Positions 15,239-55,667 are shown, counted from the whole stretch's first letter. The stretch is DNA of 62,891 bases, filler included, from Neolecta irregularis DAH-3 (GCA_001929475.1; 8 parts of 8 records of this genome joined end to end with filler, not necessarily neighbours in it), one strand, 5' to 3'. The notes: generated by a model not told the origin, from the letters alone. Numbers and translations are program-made.

Positions 15239-16232
15239 TTAGACATCCCTGACAATCATGCCGTTCTCATTTCTCGCCCGGTCAGCATACTCACTCCACG
15301 ATCCTATTAAAATTAGCGGCATTGTCATGGAGAACTTTGCCATCATAGACAGAGAGCGATCCACTATGTCCTGCAGAAACCAATGCAGTGAAAAGTGCAG
15401 AAGCGGTCACTCCACTTCCACAACTTAGAACAGTTTCCTTGGATAAATCGATCCCCTTTGCTGTAAAGAGATTCTTCAAATCCTCTGAAGGCAGAAATTC
15501 ACCCAAAGACGGATCGACGACAGTACTAAATGGGATCGAAATTGAACCAGGAATATGACCCGAGGATATATCAGGTCGCGGCTCTTTAGCTGCACCGATG
15601 AAACGATCACTTGGCCTCGCATCGATAATTTGAACATCTTTTTTCCCTCGCACTATCGCAACAACATCTTCATACGTCGAGAGCAAGTCAATTTGAACGT
15701 GGGGAACATTATACTCCGTTGCTTCAAACTCCTTTGGTTGTCCAGAATCAATATCATACTGTTCCTTCAGCCATCTCGGAAATCCTCCATCCAGAATAGA
15801 ACATTGCTGATGTCCAAAGTATCTCAACATCCAGAAAACCCTTGGGGCAGAGAAAATCCCAAGAGTGTCGTAGACGGTAATGTGATCTTCCTTCTTGATG
15901 CCCAGTCGACTCATCTCTTTCATGAAATCGGCTCTTGTGGGAAGCATGTGGGGATACGCACTTTCACCTTTGACCTTGTCCAAATCGAAGAATCGAGCAT
16001 GTGGAATTCGTCGTTGTTGGTATTCTTTCTGCGGGTCTCGTTTACTTCCTGGCATAAACCATGAACAATCCACAGGAACGACCTGGGATGGTGAATTAGA
16101 TTGCAGAGCGGCCGAAAGCGATTTTGGAGAAACAAGGATTGATTCAAAGCGATTCATATTTATTGAAACGTTGTGGAAACGCGCCGTGAGCAGGTTTACT
16201 GGACGCGCGAGAGAAAAGCTTATTAAACGCAT
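15239..16232 (-). CDS. TUM1: 3-mercaptopyruvate/thiosulfate sulfurtransferase (tandem rhodanese)
   Basis: RIPHARFFDLD, SAPRVFW, LDGG, SGHIPGS, active site CGSGVTA; YDGSWSEY is restored by GC-AG intron 15304-15340. Confidence 0.92.
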
Positions 16233-16673
16233 GAGGTTTCGTTGATGATTTTGATTCTGGTTCACCGGTACAATCAGAATATTACCCTGTTTTTCATAGA
16301 TCGATTCTTGTTATCGGCCTTCGCAATTCTACCAGTTAAGAATTCAGAGGAGAGTGGACGGATGACCAAACTGAGTGCAATACATATATGTAAGAACAAG
16401 AGTTCTTACGGGACAAGGGATTGAGTACGAATTATAGTTTGGAATGATTACGCATACCTAACCGAGATCACTGACTTGCGTTTGACAGGCTGTCAATAAA
16501 CCGGGGCTTTTTCGTAAGTTTGTTACAACCTTACAACATACGTCTTGAATCTGGATGTTCAATTCAACTATATGTAGAGAACATGCAACTATGTTCATCC
16601 ATCCTCTTCCACAATAAAACTGGTTGGAACGCTAATAAAAAAAAGCCTGCCGCAAAAATTGACTTATTTGCCT

Positions 16674-17144
16674 TTAAACTTCAACCATTTCTTCTTTTTT
16701 CGACATATAGGGAGATTTCTTACAGTCATGACATTTGTCTTTTTCAAAGTTCTTCAAGAACATCTTTCGAAAGTAATTCCACGGGAGCGGCATCGCAACA
16801 TAAACTCGCCGAGAGAACCAGTTAAATGCATCTGCTTCAAGATACGTGGAAGCAATAAACACCCTTTTCGAATCTGGGACTGAATGTATGTCGAAGAAAA
16901 TTTCCATTCTGGTTATCCAGTTGAATGTCTCATGAGGGTTTCCCGAGAAGGTTGGCGGCTCGCGACATACAAATGTTGGTAAGGGACCGCTGGGAGAGGC
17001 TGGAGCAGTGACAGTGTTCCAATATTCGAAATCTTCCGAATTTTGTCTCTCGACTTGTTTGATAGATGGAGTTTGATTTGTCATTGATGATTCCTTGACA
17101 GGAGAGTTTGGAAGAGTCTTGATGCCAGTCCAATAGTTGTTCAT
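16674..17144 (-). CDS. Stand-alone Ty3/gypsy-type Gag capsid-domain protein
   Basis: PPTFSG....NWITRMEIFF......KRVFIASTYLEADAFNWF...W..F...FLKNF is the typical retrotransposon Gag pattern; no pol or LTR is adjacent. Confidence 0.7.
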   Translation of the reverse strand: MNNYWTGIKTLPNSPVKESSMTNQTPSIKQVERQNSEDFEYWNTVTAPASPSGPLPTFVCREPPTFSGNPHETFNWITRMEIFFDIHSVPDSKRVFIASTYLEADAFNWFSRRVYVAMPLPWNYFRKMFLKNFEKDKCHDCKKSPYMSKKEEMVEV

Positions 17145-17473
17145 TCTCTGGAATAGATTGCGCACGAGGATCTCGGCGACTTGATGAATTTATACATTTC
17201 CCAAGTGTAACGTGTGACAGAATTGGTAGCACACGTCCTTGAATGACATGCTCGTCATACAGACTGATACATACATATTTAACCGGTCATTGTATGAATT
17301 TCCCCAAATTTGGCCTTGACCACCTTATCTCATGTCCTTTATAGAAACTGGGATAAACCAGATGCGAGGAAAGCTTGCTACAAACATTCCATACCCAGAT
17401 GAAGCAGGAATCCCTAGGAACACTAAGATGACGAAGGTATATATTAAATTAATACTAATGTAGGTTAAAAGAT

Positions 17474-17545
17474 GGGCGCGTAGCGCAATGGTAGCGCGTC
17501 AGATTTCGGTTCTGAAGGCTGTGTGTTCGACTCATACCGTGCTCG
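17474..17545 (+). tRNA. tRNA-Arg(TCG)
   Basis: 72-nt cloverleaf: acceptor GGGCGCG/CGTGCTC, anticodon stem TCAGA/TCTGA with loop TT-TCG-GT, T-loop GTTCGA, followed by T-runs. Confidence 0.9.
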
Positions 17546-18799: not shown

Positions 18800-20410
18800 T
18801 TAAGGCAGAACCATACCATCTCTTGCCATCTTTGCTGAAATTCTTCAGGGTTAGCATTTGCACAGGCGGCACGACATACAAAGCAGCATAAGACCAAGTG
18901 AGATCCCTTGCACCTCTTGGTTCACCTGTATTTCGATCGAATTCTTCGGATAAACTGCCATTTCTCGCGGAAAATTGTCGAACAACGTCGAGGAACGTAT
19001 CTGCATAGTTTGAAATTCCATCAACTATATGTTTGAATTCTTGTGAGTCGGATGAATAGGATCTTCCAGGTTCAGCCTTGTCGAAGAATTGCTGGAAAAA
19101 TTTGACATTTGCGGCTGTTACATTGACGCTTTTAGCTTTTGTGAATTCAAAGTTTGCTGTATATAAGGATTCTGCAACGATAGTTGTACAGAGATACCAG
19201 GGATTACCCCTGGACTTGGAAATTCCTTCGGACAAGTTAGGCTCGGGATATATGCAGTGGTATACCATCATAGACGTCTTCAGGATACCGGCCACATGCG
19301 ATTCCATTCGCATTCGCATTGATATTGTAGAGATGCTTGAAAGAATCTACAAAAGCTTGAAGAGTGACAAGGACCTTTTCATCGCTTGGCTGGAAGAGGC
19401 CATAGCCTGTACGTCCGTTGCCATGTACGGAGCCGAGCAAAGTTCCACAATCAAGGCCAGAACGACTCGAGTTTTGTGTACTGAGTAAGAAAGTTGATGA
19501 GGTAAAAGGGCGATATACGCGATAATATAGCCTTTTGAGGAAGACCAAAAGGAATAGAGTGAGTCTTCCATCTCGGCCGCTATGGTAGTAAAAATGGAAG
19601 CAGAGGAGTTGTCATTATTATCTTTGGCAAATTGAATACCCTCAATGAGAGCTCGTCGTTGGACCATCATGGTGAAGAAGTGCTGCTCTTAGTAGTCACC
19701 CATTCACAAGATAATACTGTTCCCTTGACTTCTTCCCACAAGTCGAAACTCTGACTCTTCCAGTATGTCGCCACATAATGCAAATCAGCCTTGACGACTA
19801 CAGCTCAGTTTGGCCGAGTTTTCGAAGGAACATACTGGGCCAAATTGTGTCGCTGATATAGGTCTTGCTTGAACCGTCTGTCTTGAGATACTTTTGGCAG
19901 TACTGTATCATTGCGGTTGCTCTCAATGCGGGACCGTCAGCCTGCGGCCGTCCCCAGTCGCCTTGGAAGGCTGTGCCGTTTGGGTAGAACCTGCATAGTC
20001 AGACTTGGGGGCAAAAGTGTGGAGGAATGCTTTGGTTCTCCAAGGCCGCCTGTGTCGAAACCGCCACTCGGGTTGTCTACGTGCTGCAACTTTGTCATTT
20101 CTGCAATCCAGCTCTGGACGAGACTGTTGTAGCCTGCGGGTTCCTGTGCAATGATGACCTTGTAAGTGATGGCGGAGTCGCGAATCCATTGGTAGAAGTA
20201 GTCTGGGTCTGCAGTACTGGGACTGGCCAACACCGCAGCAGAATCGACAGGACCCCCAGTGGTGCCGATGTTTGATTTGATTTTGAGGCTCGCCAGGGCG
20301 GTTTCGACAGAGAGCCACGCATCGAGGGTGGTCGCAGGAAAACAGGCAAGCAGCGAGAGCGCGGCGGCAAATATAGCCAGCATCGGGGCCGCAGAAAGTG
20401 CAGGGGCCAT
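18800..20410 (-). CDS. Secreted glucoamylase, GH15, no starch-binding domain
   Basis: PDYFYQWIRDSA, GLGEPKF, WGRPQADGPALRA, WEEV, GRYPEDVYDG, GNPWYLCT, LSEEFDR, DLTWSYAA. Confidence 0.93.
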
Positions 20411-21236
20411 GCGTGCACTGCAGCTCTGCCATCAGCAAGATGCGCTGCTTTGTTTGTGCTTGTGTCTTGTGTTCCGCGACACTAGCCACCTGCGCCACAG
20501 ATCCGTTAGGGCTCAGATGTGTCTTCGAATACGTCCGTCAGGCGCCACTCCTTCTGGATTGCCTGCGACGCTGCTAGACTCAGCACTGCAAGGCTCCTTT
20601 GCCCACTCGACTCACCCGCTCGCTTCCTCTAGATTCCTCTCGCCCCCCTGCCTGGCACCCCCACACACCTCACCCACCCCTTCCTCTTGCTCCCCTTCCC
20701 TTCACCACCCCTTCCTCTTGCTCCCCTTCCTTTCACCACNNNNNNNNNNNNNNNNNNNNNNNNNNNNNNNNNNNNNNNNNNNNTTAATTAATTAANNNNN
20801 NNNNNNNNNNNNNNNNNNNNNNNNNNNNNNNNNNNNNNNGAGTCAGAAAGAAAAGTCTATTTGAACAAGATGAGGTACGAGAGAAGTCGTATGACATTGG
20901 ATCTGGAATACGTCAATGGCCGTAGCTGTTTTATTTTTATCGCCAACCTTGACCTTCAGTGATTAAGGCTCGATTTGAAACTTAGAATACAGCAGCAAGC
21001 GCAACTATATCACAGAACCTTCCGACAAGAGTATTCATCGCGTAATCCAGTCGCTTATTTAAATTCTCTGTGCGATCTGCGATCAATTGTGCAGAAGTCA
21101 TCGTGTTGGGCTGGCTGATCAGTTGATGGATGGTTCCCTAATTATACCAAAAAGGGAAATTGGGATGACCATTAATTATGGCTTCTTCTGGCAGACAGTC
21201 ACCATAAGGAATCAACCGCCAAGATTATATACCACA

Positions 21237-21893: not shown

Positions 21894-23008
21894 CTATATT
21901 ATGCCCTTTTCCTTGATCGGCCCTCTCAATTGTCCCAGGGTGATCAAAACAGCCTCTTCAGTTCGAATAGTCCTACTACCCTGTTCAGGACACGTATTGA
22001 TCCAAAGATCAAATAGTTCTTTCGCATCTGAACCCTGTATCTCCAAAGCAGGATCATTGTCTATAGCGTATTCAATCCCTGCAAGACCCCCAAACACAAC
22101 CAACATATGTGAAAACTCTGGTATTGAAATCGACGAGATTTCATCACCACGCTCAGAAGTTCCGAGAGTAATATCATAGCCATTCTTTCATGAGAATATG
22201 AAAGCAAGGGTAGGAGGAGTTACCGTGTAAGGAGATTCCGTGAATACAGCAGATATGGAATCTGCTATGCGGACTTTATAGCCCCAATACAATCCCACTT
22301 CCTGCTTTGGTGTAGTGGAGGGAACGATTTCCCCTTCTATATATTCCCCATAATTTTTCTTAATTCGCACGGTCACTCGTGTGTTTTGGTGAATTCTTTT
22401 TCCTGGTACAAATACTCTCAAACGAAGACCGGCATCGACTAAAGTCCCATTCTTTGCGAAATCAAGGAGAGTTATTCCTTCGCGAAAGGGTAGATCGTCA
22501 TCTATCCGCAGATGATGAGGACAATCCAGCGGATTTAAAAGTCCAGCGAATTTTAAATCTCTATGCATCGGAAAGATGGATTTGCGAAGATACTGAGGAG
22601 TCTCGAGGTATTGCAATATTTTGGCTAGAAAAATGTCAGAGGCACTCAGGCCGGCATGTTTCTCCATATACGGATGTTGGTCGTCTGACTTTTTAGGAGT
22701 ATCATCATATATCACGATTTCGTCGACGTTGAAAATAGCGAGGGACCGAGCTATCTTGTTGATCAATGAAAAGGTCTCCAAGGGAGGGGTTACAGAACCA
22801 GCGAGGGCAGTTTTGAGTTCTGGGGTTTGTGAATTTGCGATTATGCTGCCAGGCAGGGCGACAGAGAGTGTATACTTTTGGCCGTGGTCTTTGAGAATGG
22901 GATTTGCAGAAGGCTTGGAGGTGTCAATGTGTCCTGGGTTATAGTGTTTTCTCTTTGGTTCAGAATGGGATGGCGGTGGTAGTGGGATACCTTTTTTTGT
23001 GGGGGCAT
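21894..23008 (-). CDS. SPOUT-family RNA methyltransferase (C9orf114/SPOUT1-like)
   Basis: TLSVALPGSII, LQYLETPQYLRK, GLLNPLD.PHH, YWGY.VR, QGSRTIRTEEA. Confidence 0.92.
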
Positions 23009-23156
23009 GGTGGTGGGAGTGGCAGGAATTTGGGGAGAGGACTGCAACAGACCCTAACTTCCTTCCATCGTCCACCACAAAAAGCGGTAGTGAAGGGATT
23101 CAATCACCGATTGCAGACTGACGGGCTAATTGATAGGAGCGACGCAGAAGGTGACG

Positions 23157-23784
23157 ATGTATGGCGATCTTGCTGCAAAATTGGTTAGCGATGCGAAGCG
23201 CATGCAACAGCTCGTGACGCTGCCGGCGTACCAGCAGGAGCTTGTGCGGGAGATCTGCCGCGAGGTGCAGCACCTAGATGAAGAGGCGAATGTACATTTG
23301 GAGGCAGCAGGTGGAAGCGATATCCGCCAGCAGAACGAGGCCGCGGCGTGTACTGTGCTCGTCCAATATCTGTGCATGCGCCGCAACAAGCGTTGTCTGC
23401 TGGCATACCATCGCGCGCGCATGGAGCGACTCGAGCAGGCGTGCTGGAGCGCTGTAGGCTGGGAGCAGACAGGCGGCGGAGGATTGTCTGCGTCAGAACA
23501 GGAATATGCGCGGCGGTACACGGAGCTGGTCGCGGGTTGTGCGGGTCGATGGACGGAGATTGATCTTGCGGGTCCACTACTGCCACCCCGGGAATTGTTT
23601 GTGGATGTGCGAGTGCTGCGGGATGCGGGGGAGATCCAGACTGAGTATGGGTGAGTCGATCGATTTTTGGTGGTGAGCCGCTGATGGACAGGGCGGTTGC
23701 ATTGACGCGCAACAGCCAGTTCTACGCGCGACACGCCGACGTCGAGCGGCTTGTACAGCAGGGTTTTCTCGCACGTGTTCCCTA
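23157..23784 (+). CDS. PSF1: GINS complex subunit Psf1
   Basis: MYGDLA.KLV, RNKRCLLAY, LLPP.ELFVDVRVL.DAGEIQTEYG; last exon VERLVQQGFL. Confidence 0.95.
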
Positions 23785-23862
23785 ACTAACCACCACTGTT
23801 TCTATTCATTGCCATATCACAGCATACACTTGCTACACTCTCCCCATACCAGACTTCCATTT

Positions 23863-24303
23863 ATGCCTTGTTCAAAGTGCGAAAACAAACTTGCCTCTCT
23901 TGCAACACCCAGGTCTTGCCTCACCCTCTTCCTCGAACCCATTTGACTCCCCCTCAGCGTAAAAAAGGCATCAGACCTCTATGGCGGTGTCGGTGCTCCC
24001 AGATCTGCTGGTCCTACTGCTCCCGAACGCAAGATTGGCGAGAACAAGATGCTCTCTAAACCTGCCAAGAAAAGGTGAAGCTACAGGCCATCTTTCAGAA
24101 CTGACCATATAGGTTCACGCCTTATGCCACAACCTGCAGCGACTGCGGATTGCGGACACATCAGGGCGGTAAGTACTGTCAGAGTACTCGCTCCTCCGTC
24201 CTCGTGAACTAATCTTGCAGAATGTGCATACAAACGCGGAGTCTGCGGGATTTGCGGAAAGAAGATCCTCGATATATCAGCATACAAGATGTCTGTCAAG
24301 TAG
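23863..24303 (+). CDS. CRIPT: Cysteine-rich PDZ-binding protein homolog (3 introns)
   Basis: Spliced product MPCSKCENKL..LATP...RKIGENKMLSK..K.RFTPY...C.DC.....GGKYCQKCAYKRGVCGICGKKILD. Confidence 0.88.
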
Positions 24304-24846
24304 TTCATCTAATGAGAGCTTCATGGTACTCCGTTCAGGACTAGGGCAGAGTATACTACTGGTTCCAAACATTATCTTGCTTTCCTTATCAAGGTTTACA
24401 TTCATGCTAAAATGGCTTATCTAATACGTACTCATCATTCAATGTCAAAGATTTATTCTGGCATGGCATCACTAATGGACTGACTATGATTCTGGAAAGC
24501 AGGAGTTAGACTGTTGGGCTAGACTAGTTGGGCACGGATGTTTCAACTAATTAATAAATCAGGAAACAGAGTAATATGTATAATAACAGTCCATGCTGCT
24601 GCGTTGAATCATAAAGCACTTAGTAGCATTGGTCTTAAGACTACAATCCAAGTTAGAAATACAAAGAGCATTACTGGTAATACAAAAGGCCGGCTATAGT
24701 GGAAATAAAGAAATAGTTGTGCTACCAAGGGTCCACTCACCATTCATTGCATTGACCGGACAAAAAGTTCACTAGACATTCATATGTTGGCTCCAGAAAT
24801 TATCTTTTTCAAATACCAAAACATAACGTTACATACCCATCACCGG

Positions 24847-27066: not shown

Positions 27067-28250
27067 ATGAATCAATCTGGCATAACAGGAAATTCACCCA
27101 ACATTTCGCATCTTCCCCTAATGTCACAGCTTCTCCCAATCTATCGAGTGCATTCGCGGATTTCATTTCAAACAAAGGCATTAGGGCGCTCAAGATATCA
27201 ATTGTCAATGGTATGAGCTTTGGGACAACCCCATTTTAAAATCTCAGAGAATCTCGAACCGAACGGGACACTGTCTATGCAGTCAGATTTTCAAAAGGAC
27301 TTTGACCAGTTACAATCATTTACCACAGATACCGACCCTGCTTACATCTTGTACAAGATAAATGAATCAGATCTCCTATTTCTCCCCTATGTTCCTGCCT
27401 CAGCCAAGGTCCGAGTAATCGTGACATAAATGCTTATTGCAGGTTCGGGATAAAATGGTCTACGCATCTACCCGAAACACATTGTACAAAGAAATAGGAA
27501 CTGAGAAATTTGCGGTCACCATCTTTGCGACATCGAAAAACGACCTGACCTATCAAACTTATGACAGCCATATGAAAAGCGAAGCCGGCGAGAAACCTGA
27601 GAGCGAGAAAGAAAAGGCTTTAAGATTTGTCAGGGAAGCAGAAACGGAAGCTCACGGAACTGCTACGAGAAGACAAATTAGTAGTGGAATTTCGTTTCCT
27701 ATGAGTGACGAGGCCCAATCGGCGCTTGAAAATCTCAAAACAACCAACGAACAAACGTTCTTGGAACTTGTATGCATTGAATTTGTAGAAGGGCTAAACA
27801 ACAGCGTATTAACACCGAAACTGAGATGATAGAGCTTGGACAGCAGGCCTCGATTCCACCTTCTCAGGTTGCAACTGCTCTACCTGCAGAATCACCTCGA
27901 TTCTCTCTGTTCAAGTCCGATTCTTTGGTCTGTACGTGACATTTGTACATCTTATTTGACACTAGCGTTTATCTATACGTGTCCAGGTACATCAAAAGTC
28001 AAGGAAAGAATGTTGTATTCGTCTTCTCGGGGAGTTCTCCTGAACTACCTTACAACACAGCTTGGTTTGCAAATCGATCGCAAGGTACTTGACAATCCTC
28101 TATCAAAATTCTTATTCTAATGGACAGATTGAAACTAGTGATTGCGTAGACGTTACCGAAGAACTTGTGCAACAGCCAATCCTCCACGAAGTGAAGCAAA
28201 CCCCCGGATTCGCCCGTCCGAAACCTCCTGCATACCGACGAATACCATGA
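27067..28250 (+). CDS. TWF1: Twinfilin (two ADF-H domains)
   Basis: QSGI, YVP..AKVR.KMVYASTR.TL, FIYTCP..SKVKERMLYSS, C-terminal FARPKPP. Confidence 0.93.
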
Positions 28251-29063: not shown

Positions 29064-31131
29064 TCACATCCCCGCATTAGGCGGTCTGTAGACGGGATGA
29101 AGAGGCGGGTGAGATGATCGTGGTCTTGGGACTACCATTCGCCCAGGTACTTGACGAGATGCAAGTTGGCGCAAACCTGTTTGATGACGGGGCAAGTTCA
29201 GATGTTGATAAGCTTGGATAGGAGGCAGTGGATTCGTATGATTAGAAGCATATGAATGATGTACATTGAGTGGAGGTAATTTCCAGAGAGCACGTCCTCT
29301 GTTAGGCCATTTACCTTTGCAATCCTTATCATTTCTAGAGGTTTGACGACTACCATTCAGGGCATAAATCTCTAGGCCTTTGTTCCTCAGAGTGTCCCGT
29401 TGCGATAAAACGGACGCATTAATTGGCCGAGCTAGAAGGAACCTTCGTGCAATGAACTCTTCAGCATCAACATGTCCTTTTGACTTACGTTGAACTGAGC
29501 TTGCCCTTTTGCAAATATCAAGAATACCAATTCCAGTTGTTCCGTTTAAAGACAGCATGTTGGAATAATTTCCCCAAATCGGATCTCCGAAAGGGCGAAT
29601 AGGATTTGCCAATGACTTTGATGCAAAGGAGTTTGTTTGTTGTGATTCGTCACATTGGAATTGAATCTCGGGAATATCTTGATCATTAGTAAACCGACAT
29701 GGTTGAAATATCTTGCCTCGGTGACCGGGCAACTCACTATGAGGTAAAGTAAGTGCGGGAATCCGGCTGCTCAAACGCACGAAGATTTTTGCTGTCATTA
29801 GTGCGTCGTATCCTGCCTCATGATCCCGCTGAAAGCAAGAATATTGCAAAAACTCCGGATGACACGCTAATGGTCAAAAACGACGGGTTGGTGAGATACT
29901 GAAGCTCAGTCCTTCACGATCCAAATCATTTGACCATGTCACAATGTCTTGGAGGGATGTTCCCTTTGAATTGTCACCAAGAACGTTCTCTTTGTGAGCC
30001 AAGAACTTTGTGTCTAATATTCTTCTAATGAGCAGATGAAATGAACTGTGGCTTACATAGGAAATGTTTCCAATATTGCTTTACAGAACTCTGCTAGCGT
30101 TGACGGTAGAGATCCTTTCATGAGACTGCAATATATGCGCATTATGTCCCCGAAAACATTGCTCATTCAATTAAACTGGAAAAAGAGGGCAATTTACTGT
30201 CCAACGAGAGGCTTTCTCGATTTGCTGAGATAGTCGAGTATAGTTCTGAGGCCTAAAATGAGCACAGATGGTCGTGGCTATTATGCCTTTTGCCTTGTCA
30301 ATTTTTCCCTCGAAGCCTCCTATCATCCTTAATTTCCTATCATTTTCAACAGCTTCATTGCCCTTGGATGTCACTTGAATGAAACCTTACAAGGTCACAT
30401 CTCAGCTAAGTGACTCGTACCAGGTCTCGTTTCAAAAGTAAACTCTGCATTTATCTCTAATTCCTGACAAAGAAGTCTTCGAAAGAAACCATTAGGTGTA
30501 TCTACGTTGACAAAAGGGAGCTTCCATTCAGAAGTATCGTGTTTCCATGTGTAAATTTCCTTGCTAAGACGATAAATGGCTTTAGTGGTGATGAGACATA
30601 CAATGCTTTGTGAAGGAACTCATACCCTTGGCGATCAGCTTGAATGATCTCCCTTTTTCTCAGGAAATCCTCCCGTAATTTTCCTTCTTCCTGTTCGTTC
30701 AGGTAGAAGACACCTTGCCTGAACAGCTTCGAGAAATCGAAATTGTGCTGCAAGAGAAATCTGATATTCTTAGGAAACAATCATGTATACTCATACTCAA
30801 TGGCAGCGGCTTCAAATTCAATCTTTCGGCAAAGGACATTCTCATTGAACTGAGAGAAGAGAGTTGGACTGATGAAAAAGTTGTATGGAGAAGCCTCGTA
30901 CTGCTGGAGCTCATGATTCCATCTTGTTGGACAAAGACCCATTTGAATGACAGCAAAGCACTCAGCTGCAGCTTTTGTTTCTGTATACCGCTGGTCAGGG
31001 GATTGTGGAATCTTTGATTTGGATATCCTCATTCCACTAAACTCACAATCAACTGCTATGAAATCGGCTTGATCAATTGAGTCAAGGATTAACTTTGTTG
31101 ACTCTGGGAGCTTATCGCGGGTAATTTCCAT
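29064..31131 (-). CDS. PARN/CAF1-family DEDDh 3'-5' ribonuclease, paralog A (with R3H-like insertion; 3' end uncertain)
   Basis: FIAVDCEFSG, VIQMGLC, YNFFISP, FDFSK, GHNVFGD, DTK, HEAGYDALMT. Confidence 0.88.
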
Positions 31132-33393: not shown

Positions 33394-33838
33394 NNNNNNN
33401 NNNNNNNNNNNNNNNNNNNNNNNNNNNNNNNNNNNNNTTAATTAATTAANNNNNNNNNNNNNNNNNNNNNNNNNNNNNNNNNNNNNNNNNNNNGACATCA
33501 AGGGCGCCAAAGCAAAAGACTCTACGAGCATAAGTAATATCCAATAAAAAGGGAGTACGTTAGAAACAACATGTCAGTTTATATGTGGGTTTAAACGTGG
33601 GAGGCTTGTGAAAGAATTGGATCTCCAGTCTTTTAAAGAAAATGTAATTAGTCTTGCCATATGTCAATGTTCCAAACCGCAAAGGAGATGTCAAACCATC
33701 TCCAAATATTTGACAAGGGTCTGAAACATTTTTTCAGCTGAGACCACTTTTGATTGTCTGTGGAACTGGCGAGGAGGGCATGGAGCAATATCAATTAGGT
33801 GTTTGATTAAGCACAGCACTGTCTTTGTTAGGTGAGAC

Positions 33839-37825: not shown

Positions 37826-38923
37826 CTATCTAAATATTAGCAAGGGAACTGACAGGCGGGTGGGCAGGTGGGCAAGATGGGTGGGTGAGACAGGAGAATG
37901 AGGCGGGCGCACAGGGTGGGAGAGGTGCACAAGGTAGGCAGGATGGGCGCGTGAGTTGGGAGGGGCGAGATGGGTGGGAGAGGCGAGATGGGTGGGAGAG
38001 GCGAGAGAGGCGTGTGAGAGGGCAAGGCGCGTGAGGCAGGCGAGGCGGGCGGGACAGGCGGGACGGGAAGGTGAGGCGCGCGGGATGGGCAGGAGAGACA
38101 GGCGAGACGGGAGAGACGGCCAGGAAGGGAGGGAGAGACAGGCGCTAGGCGAGGGAGAGACGGGCGGGAGGGGAGGGTGAGGCGGGCGGGAGAGAGTGAA
38201 TCCATAATCTTCGATCGCCAAAATGTGAGATTAGCCCTTGAAAAGACAGCTTAAGTTGATTAAGTAGGGCAGTAGCATATTCTCGTGTATCAATCTCAAT
38301 ATATTCATTTGGCGATTGCTCATTTGGTATTCATGTGATTTCATCCGCCTGGAGTTCCACGGATTCATTCCAGAGCTCACCCCAAGCTCGATTACCAACC
38401 GCAGGAATAGACCCGGCGCCAATCGCATCGAGCTACACCATTGGAAAGTGACAAAAGAGAAGAATTACCATGTACTCAGCCAATGTTGGGGACGGGCCAA
38501 AGCGCTCTTCTGGCGGGTGCAGCGGCGATAACGGGTGAAGAGGGCAGGACAGGGCTAGGAGGGCGGGCGGTAACGGGCGAGAGGGCGGGGAGATAAAGGA
38601 CTAGGAGGGGGAGGGAGGGCAGTAACTGGTGAGGTGGGCGAGGCCATAGTAGGCGAGGAGGGCAGGTGATAACGTGTGAGAGGGCGGGGCGATAACGGGC
38701 GAGGATGGAAGGCGATGACGGGTGAGGAGGGCGGGCAGTAACAGGTGAGAGCGCAGAGACGATAACGGACCAGGAGGGGGAGCAATAATGGGCGGGGTGA
38801 TAGCAGGCAAGGAGGGCAGATGATAACAGGCGATAACAGGCGAGTGTAAAAACTTTTAAAGCAAGTCCAGACAAGCAAGTCCAAGTTTGCAAGTAAAATA
38901 GCAAGTAAGTCCAAGCAAGCAAG
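37826..38923. repeat. Composite repeat region: purine-rich tract, GCGATAACGGGCGAG units, CAAGCAAGT array
   Basis: Homologous to 690-1130. Confidence 0.7.
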
Positions 38924-39023
38924 TNNNNNNNNNNNNNNNNNNNNNNNNNNNNNNNNNNNNNNNNNNNNTTAATTAATTAANNNNNNNNNNNNNNNNNNNN
39001 NNNNNNNNNNNNNNNNNNNNNNN

Positions 39024-39990
39024 NGCGCCCTCACCCGCTCCAGCTCCCGCGCCCGCTCCACCTCCGACGCCCGCTCCCGCTCCCGCTCCAGTTCCCGCGC
39101 CCACTCCAACTGCCGCGCCCGCTCCAGCGCCCTCACCAGCTCCAGTTCCCGCGCCTGCTCCAACTCCCACGCCCGCTCCAACTCCTGCGCCCACTCCAAC
39201 TGCCGCGCCAGCTCCAACTCCAGCGCCCGCTCCAGCTCCAGCTCCCGCGCCCGCTCAAACTCCTGCGCCCACTCCAACTGCCGCACCCGCTCCAGCACCC
39301 TCGTCACTCTAATTGCCTCGCACTGCAACTCCCACGCCTGCTCCAGCGCTTTCACTTGCTCCAACTCCGTCACACACTCCAACTCCCTGGCCCGCTCCAC
39401 TGCCATCACCCGCTCCAGCATCATTGCCCGCTCCAGCTCCATCTCCCGCTACAGCGCCCTTGCCAGCTCCAGCTCCATCTCCCGCTCGTCACTCTAACTG
39501 CCTCGCACTCCAACTCCCGCGCCCGCTCCAGCGCCCTCAATTGCTCCAACTCCGTCACCCACTCCAACTTCCTGGCCCGCTCCACTGCTATCACCCGCTC
39601 CAGCATCATTGCCTGCTCCAGCTCCATATCCCGCTCCAGCACCCTCGCCCACTACAGCGCCCTTGCCAGCTCCAACTCCATTGCTCACTCCAACTGCCTA
39701 GTCTGCTGCAGCGCCCTCGCCAGTTTCAGTACCCCCGCCTGCTGAGATACGCTCTCTGGCTGCAACTCCCTCGCCCATGCCCGCTGCAGCACCCTCACCT
39801 GTTGCAGAGCCTTTGTCTGCTACAACTCCCTTGCCCGCTGCAATACCCTATCCCGTTGCAGCGCCCTCTTCAGTTGCAACTCCCTCACCAACTTCAACAC
39901 CCTCGCCTGATGCGATACTATCCTGCTGCAATGCCATTCCTAGCTACAACTCGCTCATCTGCCCCAACTCACTCACCTGCTCCAACTTTG
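39024..39990 (-). repeat. Degenerate ~18-bp repeat encoding (ELERAR)n-like coiled-coil sequence with frame breaks
   Basis: CCCGCTCCA(G/A)CTC units; internal duplication of ~39300-39490 at ~39490-39680. Confidence 0.65.
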
Positions 39991-40774
39991 GTTTGAATTC
40001 CAAGGTTTCTATCTTACTCAGACATTGCAAAATTCTTACCCTTGTAGATGCCAAGTCATGAGCATATCAGAAACGGTGTCCAGCTATACTCATCAGAACC
40101 TGCCGAACCTTATCTCAACAGTCAAAACTAATGTATCTCCCTGTTACAGGATTTTTGCTAACCAGAATAGCTTAGTTGTTCAGTAATTAGGTCATTTGGT
40201 TTGTTGATGATCCCAATGTATACCGAGTCACCATTCACAAAACTGTCCTTGGTTGGCCTTGATGATGATATGAGTCAGCCAAGTTATCACCGAGGGAATA
40301 GATCCTTGCCAAATGTATGACTGCTGAAGAAGTTGCTGCTTTAATCTGATCATTCCGCCTAACTCACTATTCCATCTATGGTGCTCCATCCTCAACTCCC
40401 TCCACTAACCCTTCAGATTCTGCTATATATGGTATAACAGGCAGTGTGGTGTCACTGCCTGTTGCTTCTCCCCAGGCTCCCCCTCTGGGGCACTTTTGCT
40501 GGTATGATCTTATGAGTGCTGCAAACATCATGCTATGGAGAAGAAAGGGGAATGTAGACAGACACAAGTGATAGAAAGTATATCATATAGAAATGTTATG
40601 AATATATCAATGCTTAGAATTTGGAAACAATTACTATTTTACAATTTACTACTACAATTTGTCTTTGTAGTCTACAAAGTTTATATAGTATTATACTTGA
40701 TTGATATACTATTAGTATATCAATCAATGACTTTGGTATTGGAAAGCTCAGATCAGGAAAATGTTAGTTAAATG

Positions 40775-40896: not shown

Positions 40897-41009
40897 NNNN
40901 NNNNNNNNNNNNNNNNNNNNNNNNNNNNNNNNNNNNNNNNTTAATTAATTAANNNNNNNNNNNNNNNNNNNNNNNNNNNNNNNNNNNNNNNNNNNNGGGG
41001 GGGGGGGGG

Positions 41010-42080: not shown

Positions 42081-44374
42081 CTAAATTAAGCTTCCGTCAT
42101 CTTCGACATTCGACTGCGACCGTCTGATAAATGAACCTGGGGGAGGGAGCGTGGGAATGTAAAATGAAGGATTAAAAGATTGGAGCGGGACCGAAGAGCC
42201 AAGTTGCGAATTTGAAGAAGGTTTCCATCCTGTTTGCCTTGCTGACAGAGCGGTGCAACCGGGTGTATTTCCCCATTGCTCATTTCCAGTTAATATTGGC
42301 GTCCAACCACTAGAAGTAATTCTGTAGGGAGCTAAATCTGGCGAGGAATCATTTTTTCCAAGAACGAGGTTTTTAAAATCGGAGACGGGATCGTTGATAG
42401 ACACGGATGATTGGGATGTATCTACATTTCCCATTTCTCCCAGTTTTTTAGAATGTTCTGATTCGATGTTCCCCGAGAGGTGTTTAATCACGTCCATGAA
42501 CCTTTGGAATTGTGAAAGATTGAGCAGGGGGCCTGAGGGAATTAGAGAGGACCTAGATTTTCATACCAAGAGACATGGACCATAATAGGGGTAAAACTTC
42601 CAATGCAACAGTTTCCTTTTCAACTTTCTCTCCTAATTTCTCCAAAACGTCCAACGCGGCGATCATCACGCCTGGTTCTCGCGTTTTTATTCCTTTCAGC
42701 AATGGAATCATTTTTTCGGTTAGGGTGAACTAGGTGTTAGACTAGTAGTGGGAAGAGGATACCTTGTCGAGGAACTCGACTAGTCCGCGGAAACATTGGA
42801 GTGCGACTATTTTGATAGCGAGCATTGTGGTTGTGGAAAAGACTGCTGCGCATTTAGGAAATAATGCGGATTTTATAGTGAGGAAATCTAGTGAGGGACA
42901 AATTGATGGTATTGATTGGAGGGCTTTTTCCTGTACGAAATGGGGTGCTTCGAGGGCTGTGTAGACCATTTTCATGACGTCTAACATTAGATATATTTAG
43001 GATTTGAATACCATCTTTGAATTCATTGGAGGTTGTTTTAGATTGGAGTATTTGTAGGTTGTCGAGGAGGGCGGTTAATGAGCCTGGAGGTTCTTTTACT
43101 GTGAATATCACACAAAGGTGAGGCAGCACATGTTTTGAAAAGGATTGCTGGGATTGCTGTGAGGCTATTGCGAATATATTTGGGATTAAAGATGGGAGTA
43201 GGGAGTGGTCATGAAGAGTTTCCAACAACCCTGGCAGAATCTGGGTATTAGCAAAAGGCAAGACTCTAAATACCTTGTCGTCTTGAACGCGTTTAGAGAA
43301 TTGGGGGAGGATTTTTGGGAGACCGCGTAAGAAGGAAGTTTTCTCTGACTGAGATTTCATGGGAAAGTTTTCCAAAAAAGTGATTGTTTGTAGACGAACT
43401 TGATCGAATTGTCCGGTGGCGGAGAGGGATTCTTTTAATGCGGAAGCGGATAATCTGGTGGATGGGTGTTTAGTGATCAGCTGCTTGAGGATTCCTGATT
43501 GTTGGTAAATAAAAGGGGAGGAGAAACCGTTGTATTGTCCTGGGGAGAATTGTATACTGTCTAGGTGTTGAACTAGTGTGCGAAAAGTATTGATATTTCC
43601 ATTTGTGAGCAAGACGTTTTTTCCCGAACTGATATATTCGACTAGACAGCCCATGGAGAACATATCGAGGGCGGGCGATACATTATGTTCGAGGACATAC
43701 TCTGGGGCCAGATAATCCAAATTGCGCTGGACTGTTTTGGGCAGGCGCGAGTCGTAAGAGAAAGATTCGAAATTTTCGTCGTTCAAGACAAGGCTGAAAG
43801 CAAGGCCGCCTAGTTTCCAGTCGCCCTATGATTATTACGGTGTGAGGAAAAGGGCACCTTTGAGTTTATGAATATTGATTCTGGGGATAAATTTGAATGG
43901 ACAGCGTTTACGCTGTCGTGGAGGAATTCCAAGGCGGTGCAGATTTGAACGAGACCCTTTTGGATTTCGAGTTGGTCTAGATCTGTACCGGAGGACGAAA
44001 GAGAGGCGTTGACGTATTCTGTGACGAAGATGATTTCTGAGCGGGATTCCTGGAAGGGTTCTACGAGATGGAGGATATTTGGGTGGCGGAGTTTTGCTAG
44101 CTGGGAAGCGTCGCGTTTGCATGTGATGTATATTGATTCTAGTGTTTTGTGTGAAGGTTTAAAGATCTGAGCTTCGAGGGAACGTTTTTCCAAGATGAAG
44201 ATGCTGTATTTCTGTGCGCGTTTAGTAGCGGGGATTATTTTCCAGGGGCCTGCGGAGAAAGACTCGTTGTGGTGGAGGTCGTATGAACGTAAAAGGGCGG
44301 ACCCTTGTACTTGAATTAGTCAAAGAAGGCGGAGACCAACCGAGTTTCAAGGCGGACGTGACGGAAGTGAACAT
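42081..44374 (-). CDS. SCY1: SCY1-like pseudokinase with HEAT repeats
   Basis: AGPWKI, LAKLRHPNILHLVEP, LEIQKGL, LEFLH, VH.NL.PESIFIN.KGDWKL, LDYLAPEY. Confidence 0.9.
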
Positions 44375-44880: not shown

Positions 44881-45316
44881 NNNNNNNNNNNNNNNNNNNN
44901 NNNNNNNNNNNNNNNNNNNNNNNNTTAATTAATTAANNNNNNNNNNNNNNNNNNNNNNNNNNNNNNNNNNNNNNNNNNNNATCCATATAACTCAAATCTG
45001 AGAATCTCAATCCATATAACTCAAATCTGAGAATCTCAATCCATATGAACTCATAAATATAGATCTGATCTCATGCACCTAATATAACTTGCATGAAAAC
45101 ATAGACTATTTGATATTATGTGTTTGCATACATCCGAGGAAATCCTTTGAAACAGGCATATCCACTAGACAGATTAATCATTCAATATCGAGTCAAATCT
45201 GATAATAACGGCTGATTCTCCAGAGTGCAATGGGATCGAGTGTGCAGATTAGGTTGAGGTTAATTGCCGATGTTGTCTGGGATGATTTATGGCTGTCTAA
45301 TATGCGATTTCGATTA

Positions 45317-46305
45317 CTAATTTGGAAGAGGCTGATTTGCACGAGGCTGTCTGGGACGATTTGCCGGAGGTCTGCCTCTGGACGCGCCTCGTCCTCTGCC
45401 TCTACCGCGAGGAGGTAGAGGGTCAGTGCGAGGGAGCGAATCCTTTCGGGGATGAGAATCAGTGCGAGAAGGAGAATCCGTTCGAGATTGGTCTGTGCGA
45501 GGGCTTTGATCCGGGAGAGCGGAAGTATCAGCATCCTGCTTGTTATCCGCGAGGGCTTGTGATTTTGGATTTTTCAAGATTCTTGGGGTAGTTTTTGGAT
45601 GATGGACGATTGGCTTTTGGACGATATCTGAAGAATGTGGGGCACTTGTTTCTGGGATCCTTTTCCTGCCGCGGGTCTTTTTTGGGAATGGTCTGGGGTC
45701 TCTTTTTGAGATATCCGGGGGGACGCGGGCGCTCCTAGCCTTTGCGGCGATGGCTGCGGCCTTTCTCTCGAGCTGGGCCTTTTTCTGGAGGGTCAGGTAG
45801 TCGAGGAGGGGGGTGGAGTCTGGGGGCGGGGGAGGCGTGTCTTGCTGGAGCGGGGCGAGGGAGTCGAGGGAGGCGACAAAGTGGAGATAGTGGTCGTCTG
45901 GGCGGGGTTAGCGGGGGGAGGCGAGGGGAGGGACCTGTGAGGATGGTGTTCTTGCGGGCATCAGTCTTTTTCGGGGGGCGGGAGGGTTTCTGGAAGATTG
46001 CGGGCTCGGCGACGGGGCGGTACTCGGTGCCGGCCTTGTCTCTGAAGACGTGGCCGCGGAAGGCGTGGAGGAAGCTGCAGAGGAGGGCGTGGGAGGCGAA
46101 GGTGATGTAGGCGCGGGCGGGGCGCGGGTGCCTGCGGGGCCTGCGAGGATCAGGGAGAGCAGCGGGCAGCGGCGTACGCTGCGGAGCCGGGGCGGAAGTA
46201 GTAGTCCTCGACAGCGCCGGGGGCGGCGGGCAGCACGGCGGCGCAGAACACGGCCTCGGGCAGCAGCGGCGGCAGGCGGCGGACGACGGCCTTGCGGGGG
46301 GGCAT
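45317..46305 (-). CDS. UPF3: Nonsense-mediated decay factor Upf3
   Basis: MPPRKAVVRRLPP, RAYITF, F.GHVF.D..G.EY...AE.A.FQK, DAR.NTI; RG-rich tail. Confidence 0.8.
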
Positions 46306-46319
46306 CAGAGGGAGGGGTA

Positions 46320-46498
46320 GTAGGTAGTATGTAGTAGGGTCAGAGGAGTAGAGGGTAGGTCAGAGGAGTAGAGGTAGGGTCAGGAGAGGGTAGGGTCAGG
46401 AGAGGGTAGGGTCAGGAGAGGGTAGGGCAGAGGAGAGGGTAGGGCAGAGGAGAGGGTAGGGCAGAGGAGAGGGTAGAGGTTAGGGTTAGGCAGGTCAG
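46320..46498. repeat. G-rich 15-16 bp tandem array (GGGTAGGG(T)CAG(A)GGAGA) in the UPF3/SIT4 divergent intergenic region
   Basis: Directly visible; includes TTAGGGTTAGG. Confidence 0.85.
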
Positions 46499-46504
46499 AA
46501 CGAC

Positions 46505-47606
46505 ATGCCCGCACACCCCCTCGCCGACCCCGAGCGCTGGCTGGCGACGGTGCGCGAATGCCGCCCGCTGGCCGAACCGGACCTGAAGCGGCTGTGCGAG
46601 CAGGTCAAGGAGCTGCTGATGGAGGAGAGCAACATCCAGCCCGTGCGCGCGCCCGTCACCGTCTGCGGCGACATCCACGGCCAGTTCTACGACCTGCTCG
46701 AGCTGTTTGCCGTCGGCGGCGAGATGCCCGCCACAAACTACATCTTCATGGTACGCCGCTGCCCTTCGCGCTGACGCCAGGGCGACTTTGTCGACAGAGG
46801 CTACTTCTCGCTCGAGACCTTTACCCTGCTCATGTGCCTCAAGGCGCGCTACCCAGACCGCATCACCCTGCTGCGCGGCAACCACGAGTCGCGCCAGATC
46901 ACCCAGGTCTACGGCTTCTACGGTTCCGCTCTCTGCGTCCTGCCGCCCTAATCCCAGACGAGTGCCAGCAGAAATACGGCAACGCAAACGTCTGGAAGTA
47001 CTGCTGCCAGGTCTTTGACTTCCTCACCCTCGCCGCCATCATCGACGGCCGCGTCCTCTGCGTCCACGGCGGCCTCTCGCCCGAAGTCCGCACCCTCGAC
47101 CAGATCCGCGTCATCGCCCGCGCAATGGAAATCCCCCACGAGGGCGCCTTTTGCGATCTCATGTGGAGCGATCCAGAGGGTACCTGCTGCCGCTACCCCG
47201 CTCACCGCCAGACGTCGAAACATGGGCCGTCTCCCCGCGTGGCGCAGGCTGGCTGTTTGGCGACAAAGTCACCTCCGAGTTCAACCACGTCAACGATCTC
47301 TCCCTCATCGCCCGCGCCCACCAATTGGTCCAGGAGGGCTTCAAGGCATGCCCCCCCCGTCTCCCCTCATAACCGTCAGTACCACTTCAAAGACGAAAAC
47401 CTCGTCACCGTCTGGTCAGCCCCAAATTACTGCTACAGGTGCGGAAATGTAGCAAGCATCATGAAACTAGACGACAACCTCCTCCCTGAATTCAAAATAT
47501 TCAATGCAGATACCGTCCCTTGTCCAGAGCTTCAGCTGACCTAGTACTCCCAGACGATCAAAGACAGATACCCCCAAAAGGACAAAGAAGCGAATACTTT
47601 TTATAA
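46505..47606 (+). CDS. SIT4: PP6-type Ser/Thr phosphatase catalytic subunit (Sit4/Ppe1), 5 introns
   Basis: [66 protein letters not shown]-terminal YFL. Confidence 0.95.
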
Positions 47607-49296: not shown

Positions 49297-49390
49297 GCCG
49301 CGATGGCCGAGTGGTTTAAGGCGGCAGTCTTAAGTTGTTTAGGCAACTGCTGGGTATCGTCCCGCGTGAGTTCGAACCTCACTCGCGGCA
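49297..49390 (+). tRNA. tRNA-Leu(TAA) with ~10-nt intron
   Basis: Acceptor GCCGCGA/TCGCGGC-A, D-arm TGGCCGAGTGG, stem GCAGT/ACTGC with CT-TAA-G then intron TTGTTTAGGC, long variable arm, GTTCGAAC. Confidence 0.9.
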
Positions 49391-52515: not shown

Positions 52516-53000
52516 TTATTTGGTTCCCCGTTCCTTTGCGGCCTTGACGCCGGCTGCACTTCGCTTCAGAATATTCTCACGATCTTTATCCAACTTTAAT
52601 TTTGTGATGACGAGGTTGCTTGAGCTCACGCCAACTGGAACAGAGGCTCCATTGGCTTTTTCCCGGGTAACTCGTTCGATGTGAACAATGAATTTCTTTC
52701 GATAGACTTGTTGGACTTTTCCTTCTCGACCCTTGAATGAGCCTCGAACGACTAGAACCTCATCATCCTTTCGAATAGGAATAGATCGAGTCTACAAATA
52801 GTTAAAGGCGTTCGATGTGACTTGCAGAATACCTTGTATTTGTCACGTAGCTCTTTGGATAAAGCTGAAGACATGATAATCCGTCTAACGGATGAAGGTG
52901 CAGAGAAGTGGGCCTTTCGGCTCTTTCTGCGGGACGATGAGACACCTTGTTTGTGAGCCAACCTATTCATATAGAGCAAGATACTCTCTGATTGCTTCAT
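52516..53000 (-). CDS. RPL26: 60S ribosomal protein uL24
   Basis: [39 protein letters not shown]. Confidence 0.96.
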
Positions 53001-53632
53001 GGGTGGTGAATATAGGGATGTCGCGGACGATTTTTGGTGGTTACTTGGCAATGTAACAGTCACTTGGGATAATTGACTTGGGATAATTGTCGCTAATTAT
53101 TGAGAAGTATTATTAGGGACTCTAAGCCAACGGTCGACCCTCAGGATCTAGACAATTTCTACTGTCGTCTTATTATACAAGTATTTTAAATGTGATACAC
53201 ATCATTTTTTCTTATTCTTACTAAAATGGCAGAATTTCCCTTTCTTGTGGACAAGGTCCACGAACTGGTCACTCTGATCTCGTAGATATCCAAGTCAAAA
53301 CAATCAAGCTAATGCGAATCAAAGAAAATAAGACTCGATCCCCAATTTCTTCCACAGAATAATATAATTCAAATACTACATATACAATCAACTCCCACCT
53401 GCATGACTCTTACACAAACTTATATCCATAAACAGAGCACAATCCCTAGGACAGTGATTCATGATAGCTAGCGTATAAACCAGATCGAGTGCATACCCAT
53501 AAACACACATCTATCTACAAAAGAATAGGTATAAAACTACATATGAGATAAAAAGTGCACACCCTACTGCAAATTTGAAACGCAGAAACATAAAAGTACA
53601 ACATAAAAACGTGGCAATATTTCAAGATATGC

Positions 53633-55667
53633 TTAGGAATCAAACGCCAACCCGTAAAGCACTTGATCCTCTGGAATTTGTTCGTATTGACCAAGAGGCC
53701 CACGTTTGTGAAGATTACCCGCGCCACTCTCGACAGAATCGTCAGAGTAACTCCCTTGAACGATAACGGCTACTTTCATAGTGTTTGGTGGCTCTTGTAT
53801 ATCGATACTTGTAATGGTGTAATTATTAGTTCCTGGATTTCGAACTAAATTGCCTCTATCGGCACTCAACAGTTTTCGAGTCGAAGAAAAGCCGATTGAC
53901 CATTGGTTAAGGGAACTGGATTCTTTGCGTAGTTGGATTACCGCTTGAAAGTTTGTGGCATTAACATTGGAAATGGTAAAAGTGACGCCCGCAGTAGAAC
54001 TCGACATGGCAACTTGGGTAATTTCATCGTCTCGTTTTTCCAAACTCCTTTTCGTTATGGCAGAACAGGCAGAGACTGTTGAACTTCCAGGCCAACCACA
54101 GCTGATTGAACCTCCTAGATACTGGCAAACTGTTCCCGGGGCGCAGGCTCGAAGCAACCATGAACCTATGACTTGAGACCAATCCAAAGAGCTTGTTTAC
54201 CAAAAAGACATTGAGCGTATCCGTAGCCTACACAGGCATATGTTCCGTCCGAACAACTACCCCCGTTAACGGGACAAGTTCCACCCGACGAACCAGCTGG
54301 TGCTTTTGTTGTCGTTGCCTTTGCTGTCGTTGCCTTCGTTGTTTTGGTAAGTACTGCTCCTCCGCAAGTTAATGGACATGTTATTTTAGGCGACGTGAGC
54401 ACTTTCCCACCAAGCTTTGTAGTAGTTTTTTGTTTCAAAGTTGTGGCAGCTTTGGTGGGAGCTGTAGTCTTCTTGGCAGTTGTTATTTTAGGAGGTGAAG
54501 CAGCTGGAATAGAGACGATAGCGTTATTCGTCAAAGCAATTTTTGCAGCTTGCGCATAGTTCATCGTAGAAGTCACTTGATTGCGCCAAGCCTGTGAGGT
54601 ATCCCTACACATGAAATTAAAAAGAGCAAATGCTGAAAACTTGCCACATCATTATACCCCCAAAGGATGAGTATTGTGCTTGAAGAGCCTTTGCGATCGT
54701 GCTTAGTTGAGCAGCCGAGATATACCCTGACCCTGCAGCGCTTGCGGCAGCCGGAACACCTAGAAATATTTTCACCTTCTTGTTGGGACTTGTAGTTTTA
54801 GCGAATGTATCCCAGGTAGCGAAATTGAAGTTGCTTGTTCCATACACATTGACACCACCTAATGAAATCAGTAAAGTATCAAATGTACGTGATTTACAGT
54901 AATTATTATAAAATTGGACAAAAACAAAGTCAAACATGCTTGAAGAAAGTGCTGGGTTAATCTCGTAGTCCGGGTACGGGCATTGAGGAGCGGCGGCGAT
55001 GTAAAATGTTCGACTTGGCATACTTGCGTAATGGACTCTCATTTGATTAACAAAGGCCGCGTATCCAGTAGTAGGGCCACCCTCGATATCGAGATCGAAC
55101 CCATCGACAATAGAACTGTCAAATGGTCGATACATGTACGAACCGCCTCCAAACATATTCCAGAGTTTGTCAGCAAATGCAGAACCCGCTGCATCACTGG
55201 TAAATCCGTAGGCTCCAGAAGCGCCCCCAAGAGATAGCAGAATCTTCTTTCCGGCCGTTTGACATGTTTGAATATCTCTCCTACAAAAATGAAAACAATC
55301 CTGGAAGCACCTATTCGATACCCAATTTGTGGACAATGTAAAAGCTGCGTTCCAGAAAAATAAGCACCGTCATTGCAGGACCCGGCGAAATTCACTCCAG
55401 GTTGTCCATCTGTGTTTGCAAAGATGTTGAGGAAAGCAAGAGGAATGATCTAACATTGTTCAAAACTAGAGACCAAGAAATAGGTAAACGAACATCGATT
55501 GTAGAAGTTTGGCAATAATATGCCAGGTTTTGCTGTGCACCAACGATATTAACTGAATTTTGTCCCCAGTAAACGGCGAGATTGGTGTTTGCCGAGGCGG
55601 AGAAGGCAGTGATCGAACCAGTAAGAATGCAAGTAATAATACATGTAAGCATAACTCTGGAGAGCAA
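53633..55667 (-). CDS. Secreted GH18 class-III (Cts1-like) chitinase with Thr/Lys linker, CBM19-like module and extra C-terminal domain
   Basis: AVYWGQNS, KILLSLGGA, catalytic DGFDLDIE, AAPQCPYPD, FVQFYNN, GIMMWD, C...G.W....CAPGTVC. Confidence 0.92.

Follow-up and report, generated by a model that had tools for sequence, protein, structure and literature searches.

Five probable GC-AG introns among short, weak-donor introns in a 63-kb window of the Neolecta irregularis genome

INTRODUCTION

Across 130 fungal annotations, the mean share of GC-AG introns is 1.009% (PMC7072748 Table 1). Curated sets give 20 GC-AG introns among 2604 (0.77%) for Fusarium graminearum, whose GC donors favor AG:GCAAGT (here and below, the colon marks the splice site), and 1706 GC-AG introns (1.85%) for Ganoderma lingzhi, together with 35 GA-AG introns (0.038%). 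Eurytemora affinis and Oikopleura dioica have frequent GA-AG introns, which are found at trace level in fungi. Low donor information accompanies high intron density (PMC3488318; PMC2483917), and variable 3′ intron sequences were found in all intron-rich species studied in PMC2483917. Here, we analyzed a 62,891-base stretch of DNA (the window) from the ascomycete Neolecta irregularis DAH-3, in which one intron in each of five protein-coding genes appears to begin with GC and end with AG.

The N. irregularis genome is reported to comprise 14.5 Mb (N50, 16 kb; 44% GC; 5,546 genes), and the DNA and RNA were obtained from fruiting bodies and the coverage was 199-fold (PMC5309816). According to supplementary file 1 of that paper, the genes have 4.3 introns each, which average 42 bp in length, and the annotation was made with MAKER using AUGUSTUS, SNAP, GeneMark-ES, and PASA/Trinity transcripts. 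The terms "intron," "splice," and "GC-AG" do not occur in its main text. Our literature search yielded no paper describing GC-AG introns or donor logos of N. irregularis. In passages of PMC5309816, PMC8476143, PMC10878826, and PMC7072748, no statement on GC-AG introns in Neolecta was found, and the genus is absent from the main text and one supplementary file of PMC7072748.

RESULTS

Removal of five GC-AG introns restores conserved protein sequences

An earlier note on this DNA had proposed that five GC-AG introns are needed to restore conserved motifs. Indeed, each of the five segments starts with GC and ends with AG at the coordinates claimed, and in all five genes the spliced frame is continuous and collinear with homologues. 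The introns, together with the corresponding intron of a paralogue, are as follows:

15304-15340, minus strand: GC-AG intron of TUM1 (3-mercaptopyruvate sulfurtransferase), 37 nucleotides (nt), donor atg:GCAAAG, CTAAT 9 nt from the AG.
19991-20030, minus strand: GC-AG intron of a GH15 glucoamylase gene, 40 nt, donor aaa:GCATTC, CTGAC 8 nt from the AG.
30253-30286, minus strand: GC-AG intron of PARN-A (CAF1-family deadenylase), 34 nt, donor aag:GCATAA, phase 1 in a Gly codon.
32881-32914, plus strand: GT-AG intron of PARN-B, 34 nt, donor GTATTT, matching the PARN-A GC intron in Gly codon and phase.
47346-47379, plus strand: GC-AG intron of SIT4 (PP6/Sit4-type phosphatase), 34 nt, donor aag:GCATGC.
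54605-54644, minus strand: GC-AG intron of a class III (GH18) chitinase gene, 40 nt, donor gtg:GCAAGT.

In TUM1, a single 272-codon exon finishing ...SVYD is followed by G:GCAAAG...AATAG:GA. Once 15304-15340 is removed, the protein terminates as ...VYDGSWSEYADRARNENGMIVRDV before a stop; the homologues have C-termini of the form ...YDGSWTEWAQRV.... Against a profile of 119 homologues, the GC-AG model scored 360.6 bits and reached profile position 336 of 337. The read-through (336.9 bits) and a model with a nearby GT donor, GTTCTC (336.7 bits), aligned only to approximately position 318; the gain over the read-through was thus 23.7 bits. The identical protein-collection sequence P0001 (288 amino acids [aa]; 15291-16157, minus strand) corresponds to the read-through open reading frame (ORF). 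It ends with ...GKVLHDNAANFNRIVE and misses the conserved SW(S/T)E(W/Y) tail.

The splice product of the glucoamylase gene reads ...GLGEPK:FYPNG.... When translated separately, its exons matched PF00723 at positions 9-104, 106-150, 152-176, 178-232, 239-308, and 312-421, and position 105 is filled by the AA:G codon that is split at the GC-AG junction. At this junction and at the next two, exactly one profile position each is left for the split codon. No GT is present in the donor region.

The two neighboring PARN paralogues offer an internal comparison. The earlier note had stated that the PARN-B intron at the position of the PARN-A GC intron is a GT intron, and in the protein alignment both the codon and the phase match. 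The alignment is collinear over the junction (KAKG:LRTILDYLSKSRKPLVGHNVFGD in PARN-A versus AARG:IRIVLEHISKTKKPIIGHNVFGD in PARN-B, starting KAKG:LRTIL versus AARG:IRIVL). Three further intron positions are common to the paralogues, making four in total, and a gene model restricted to GT donors breaks PARN-A into two genes. The paralogues are divergently oriented (PARN-A, 29198-31131, minus strand; PARN-B, 32367-33392, plus strand). As modeled, PARN-B misses approximately 90 residues of the PARN-A middle, and the gene is cut by a contig end. Another candidate lies in the PARN-A tail:

29678-29716, minus strand: candidate GC-AG intron, 39 nt, donor gag:GCAAGA, TACTAAT 8 nt before the AG.

This segment was chosen by our gene finder (see below) and is in frame and free of stops; the PARN-A tail is poorly conserved, and nothing there requires splicing.

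In SIT4, we traced five introns of 30, 35, 32, 34, and 32 nt. The exons flanking the GC intron match the protein phosphatase 2A chain 2nyl_C at 208-247 (residues 4 to 43 of 44) and 251-288 (residues 4 to 41), so that they meet near residue 248, with a single residue in excess. A profile was built from 21 PP6/Sit4 homologues of 290 to 360 aa, kept from 120 listed. On this profile, the GC model scored 625.9 bits. A GT alternative that also keeps the frame (47359-47392) reached 613.8, a model with a GT donor upstream 598.0, and the read-through 525.7. The KYHF that follows EG[FY] in the GC model is found at this place in 7 of the 21 homologues, and KACP is found in none. Among the homologue matches listed, no protein was 100% identical to SIT4. 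The gene is 67% GC at the 5′ end and AT rich at the 3′ end.

One exon of the chitinase gene is 100% identical to the 605-aa "Chitinase 1 [Neolecta irregularis DAH-3]" in a public source. Two donors that share the frame are separated by 3 nt, a GT (GTGGCA) at 54647 and the GC at 54644, and their use differs by one codon. The public model, P0121, takes the GT donor, resulting in ...GGIMMDTSQAW with a deleted tryptophan. Use of the GC donor gives ...GGIMMW:DTSQAW... (product ...GGIMMWDTSQAW). This tryptophan is present in all 113 homologues that have a residue at the position; the remaining 6 of 119 are gapped there. In line with this, the GC model scored 610.5 bits and P0121 scored 597.9 (+12.6 for GC).

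For TUM1, chitinase, and SIT4, we also listed every donor/acceptor pair near the site, regardless of dinucleotide, and the resulting products were all scored on the homologue profile. The GC-AG product ranked first among the 1689, 1229, and 1320 candidate junctions, respectively. The best GT-AG junction was lower by 18.0 bits in TUM1 (342.6 bits), 12.7 in chitinase, and 12.1 in SIT4 (610.5 bits for 47359-47392 versus 622.6 for GC-AG). A few shifted boundaries yield an identical mRNA; among them, GC-AG alone is a known splice-site pair.

The GC donors follow a weak local consensus

The splice signals were compared in a curated set of 94 introns, 89 of them with GT donors. The GT donors have A at +3 in 75%, T or C at +4 in 78%, G at +5 in 37%, T at +6 in 46%, and G at -1 in 52% of cases, and the information outside the GT amounts to 2.07 bits. 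The local consensus is (A/C)xG:GTA(T/C)G(T), i.e., of the GTAYG type and not GTAAGT. The claimed weakness of the GT donors is borne out by the low information content and the rarity of G at +5. Among the weak GT donors that had been given as examples, GTTCCG, GTCTTG, and GTCCGA are in the curated set, while GTGGAA appeared in looser gene-finder runs only and GTTATT was not located. Since weak donors are expected in intron-rich genomes, degenerate donors alone call for no changed U1 or U6.

As noted earlier, four of the five GC donors deviate from GCAAGT (GCAAAG, GCATTC, GCATAA, and GCATGC). This had been taken as a sign of degeneracy, but the GC donors are good matches to the organism's own consensus. 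Ranked among the 89 GT donors, they fall at percentiles 51 (TUM1), 93 (GH15), 74 (PARN-A), 100 (SIT4), and 66 (chitinase) (Mann-Whitney, P = 0.02). A is found at +3 in all five and G at -1 in four. Scoring between the 51st and 100th percentiles of the local GT donors, they follow the usual compensation rule for C at +2.

The introns are short. Their median length is 36 nt, 88 of the 94 are within a tight limit of 30 to 45 nt, and the five GC-AG introns measure 34 to 40 nt. A YTRAY motif is present in 66 of the 94 introns, in 48 of these at 6 to 9 nt from the AG. Three of the five GC-AG introns contain it, at 8, 9, and 12 nt from the 3′ splice site. The acceptors are CAG (39), TAG (38), AAG (16), and GAG (1). 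U12-type introns are marked by an [AG]TATCCTT-like donor and a branch site like TCCTTAAC; a U12-type donor was found in none of the five GC-AG introns (GCAAAG, GCATTC, GCATAA, GCATGC, and GCAAGT).

The first intron of twinfilin fits best without a GT donor

A further gene, encoding twinfilin, has a first intron with two readings:

27089-27129, plus strand: GA-AG reading, 41 nt, keeps MNQSGIT.
27080-27129, plus strand: GC-AG reading, 50 nt, donor GCATAA, loses GIT.

None of the 415 ORF-keeping junctions provided a GT-AG solution. The GA-AG product (MNQSGITASPNL...) scored best, with 82.2 bits against 70.1 for GC-AG, a gap of 12 bits on a profile of 50 homologous N-termini that were picked by their N-terminal motif, which favors the GA model. 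The start MNQSGI... resembles that of homologues, since 50 of 58 full-length-like matches begin with M.{0,4}[ST]G[ILFV]. The representative protein-collection sequence P0361 (275 aa) begins at 27277, downstream of this intron. Judged from the sequence, the intron may be of the GA-AG or the GC-AG type; the GA donor could also be explained by a one-base assembly gap, with GTAAAT read as GAAAT.

GC-AG introns amount to 5 of 94 in the modeled genes

To count introns, we used our own dynamic-programming gene finder. A low intron penalty led to over-splicing, with false introns in the long exon of TUM1 and in SIT4 exon 1, and two of the five claimed GC-AG introns were missed because nearby GT donors were taken. 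A stricter run gave 94 introns in 27 genes. This result was then corrected by hand: other donors were assigned in TUM1 and chitinase, PARN-A received two additional introns, two unverified introns past the end of the CRIPT domain were dropped, and the last SIT4 intron was re-placed. The curated set again comprises 94 introns in 27 modeled genes, in line with the previous estimate of 80 to 100 for the window, and 81 of the 94 are impossible to read through. It includes the following intron:

47522-47553: intron in the curated set.

The GC-AG share is thus 5/94, or 5.3% (95% confidence interval [CI], 1.7 to 12%). The previously claimed excess over a typical rate of about 1% has a P value of 0.0027 against 1.009%; it is marginal against 2% (P = 0.041) and not significant against 3% (P = 0.15). 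Three additional GC-AG candidates were rejected: 15222-15261 and 24466-24502 are located past the ends of TUM1 and CRIPT, respectively, as supported by homology, and 45785-45856 is of low confidence.

Base composition and other features of the window

Eight draft contigs, joined via seven linkers, form the pseudo-molecule that is the window (linker motif N44-TTAATTAATTAA-N44). Gene order across the linkers therefore carries no meaning. Contig ends adjoin the GH15 and PARN-B genes. The linkers, which place stops in all six frames, are at these positions:

13341-13440: linker.
20740-20839: linker.
33394-33493: linker.
36399-36498: linker.
38925-39024: linker.
40897-40996: linker.
44881-44980: linker.

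Against a background of 0.40 to 0.45 GC, the window contains islands of approximately 1 kb each with 0.54 to 0.67 GC:

8001-9000: GC-rich island.
20001-21000: GC-rich island.
23001-24000: GC-rich island.
38001-40000: GC-rich islands.
46001-47000: GC-rich island.

A long Ala/Pro-rich low-complexity open frame (APAPAP...; 38981-40000, plus strand) lies in the most GC-rich stretch. Intron GC content tracks local GC content (r = 0.76). Since introns within islands are likewise GC rich, the bias is regional and not codon driven. A local GC content of at least 0.50 was found for 2 of the 5 GC-AG introns versus 6 of the 89 GT introns (Mann-Whitney, P = 0.10; hypergeometric on the counts, approximately 0.06). 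As a driver of the T-to-C change at +2, the GC-rich islands are only suggestive.

The SCY1-like kinase gene has a 33-nt intron (42730-42762, minus strand) beginning with GTATCCTC, which resembles a minor-spliceosome donor. Because an ordinary CTAAC branch site lies near its AG, this likeness is probably due to chance.

No small nuclear RNA genes were found in the 62,891-base window, where an Rfam scan matched two transfer RNA (tRNA) genes only:

17474-17545: tRNA gene, 72 bases.
49297-49390, plus strand: tRNA gene, 94 bases versus a 71-position model, probably containing an intron.

DISCUSSION

The data suggest that N. irregularis, an intron-rich early-diverging ascomycete, harbors in nuclear genes five genuine U2-type GC-AG introns, for which the ordinary major spliceosome is the most likely machinery; we assign this reading a probability of about 0.78. 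Each of the five is an ordinary member of a known minor class. At each donor, T would have been replaced by C at +2, and the remaining positions match the species' own weak consensus at the median level or better. The introns would have retained their short length of 34 to 40 nt, and the ordinary major spliceosome would remove them. The share of 5 in 94 exceeds the 0.8 to 1.9% published for other fungi, and the odds that GC-AG introns account for at least 3% of introns in the whole genome are, in our view, roughly even. If they do, relaxed selection on donor positions in tiny, length-limited introns would be a sufficient cause.

Several observations weigh against this reading. The junctions, their frames, and their agreement with homologues are shown here; the excision of the five introns in RNA, and the machinery responsible, we infer from genomic DNA. 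The GC-AG introns of SIT4 and PARN-A have no YTRAY, only CTCAT. Chitinase and SIT4 also have GT-AG alternatives that keep the frame, one of which is used in the public chitinase model, and both GC and GT splice forms of these two genes could be made. The 94-intron denominator consists of our own, partly hand-corrected models and not of transcripts, and it covers the modeled genes only. Furthermore, the gene finder took decoy dinucleotides no less readily than GC (GC, 8; GA, 14; AT, 14; AA, 20; TT, 11; CT, 8; CA, 6; GG, 2), so its ab initio counts are no evidence for GC-AG introns and it was used for the denominator only. A signal-only count of XY...AG segments at threshold 12 gave 82 for GT, 35 for GC, and 28 to 58 for the other 14 dinucleotides. 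Since this does not set GC apart, the case for GC-AG introns is one of homology only.

The number of GC-AG introns, as distinct from their identity, could be a matter of luck. In this explanation, the genome has a GC-AG share ordinary for fungi (approximately 1 to 2%), and five such introns fall by chance in a 63-kb window. We consider this a serious possibility, somewhat short of an even one. The sample is small, as reflected in the wide CI, the share in Ganoderma lingzhi comes close to the 2% against which the excess is only marginal, and the finding was chosen for follow-up since it looked unusual. Set against this are the low P value in comparison to the mean of 130 fungal annotations (PMC7072748), the twinfilin intron as one more non-GT intron, and the candidate in the PARN-A tail. 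Artefacts, namely T-to-C assembly errors or genes that are decaying copies, appear very improbable. Although the window is a draft of joined contigs, the public chitinase model avoids the GC donor, the TUM1 read-through call may do so too, and the twinfilin model starts past intron 1, an artefact would have had to arise five times independently, always precisely at +2 of an intron that has to be removed to restore a conserved protein. Moreover, the five spliced frames are intact and collinear with homologues, and the reported coverage is high (PMC5309816).

The earlier note had gone further and proposed a permissive spliceosome. Of that interpretation, the reality of the GC-AG cluster, the degeneracy of the GT donors, and the narrow length range stand; the GC donors, however, follow the local consensus in the usual manner. 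A lineage-wide permissive recognition, in which a U1, U6, or Prp8-type reading of +2 and +5 would be altered, non-GT donors (GC-AG and some GA-AG) would reach several percent, and introns would be set mainly by length and branch point, is in our opinion unlikely. The GC-AG excess over 1.009%, twinfilin as a sixth intron that has no GT-AG solution and fits best as GA-AG, the low donor information and the scarcity of G at +5, and the narrow lengths with a tight branch-point-to-AG spacing would agree with it. However, a truly permissive spliceosome would need no compensation, and the GC donors are at or above the local median. In addition, the excess is marginal against 2% and is lost against 3%, weak donors are typical of intron-rich genomes (PMC3488318; PMC2483917), and the twinfilin GA donor could be an assembly gap. 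Doubtful is a genome-wide share of approximately 4 to 6% non-GT donors (GC-AG with occasional GA-AG), with the 5′ end of the introns of about 36 nt read mainly via G at +1, A at +3, and a fixed branch distance and with +2 and +5 nearly free. The preferred reading remains that of U2-type GC-AG introns processed in the ordinary way.

These introns matter for gene annotation. The public chitinase model of this genome lacks an invariant tryptophan of the active-site region. The TUM1 call P0001 ends in a read-through and the twinfilin sequence P0361 is without the N-terminus; these two may be annotated models of the genome. All three faults coincide with a non-GT donor. In this fungus, a very large number of introns goes together with a median intron length of approximately 36 nt and very weak donors. 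Should a 5% share be true genome-wide, the fungus would be a natural test case for the minimal 5′ splice-site information that a major spliceosome requires under tight intron length. If approximately 4 to 6% of donors were non-GT, no intron-rich fungus with a more permissive use of 5′ splice sites would be known, and a sizeable share of public gene models would be mis-spliced; after chitinase and twinfilin, the TUM1 read-through may be the third such case in the window.

Compared with known systems, the five introns are like fungal U2-type GC-AG introns in that they have GC at +1/+2, an AG end, and ordinary positions in housekeeping genes, and in that the donor is otherwise near the species' consensus. 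They differ in that four of the five lack the AAGT after the GC that is favored in F. graminearum and follow a local consensus of the GTAYG type, in that the introns are only 34 to 40 nt long, and in that the share in the window is 5.3%. The tandem donors of the chitinase gene, a GT and a GC 3 nt apart, resemble tandem alternative donors elsewhere; here, only the GC form keeps the invariant tryptophan. The twinfilin intron, a single candidate case, is like GA-AG introns in that it fits homologues best in this form. With many introns per gene and low information outside the GT, the window resembles the weak-donor, intron-rich genomes described in PMC3488318 and PMC2483917. Unlike the intron-rich species of the latter study, it has 66 introns with YTRAY of which 48 show the motif 6 to 9 nt before the AG, a tight spacing that may follow simply from the 36-nt median length.

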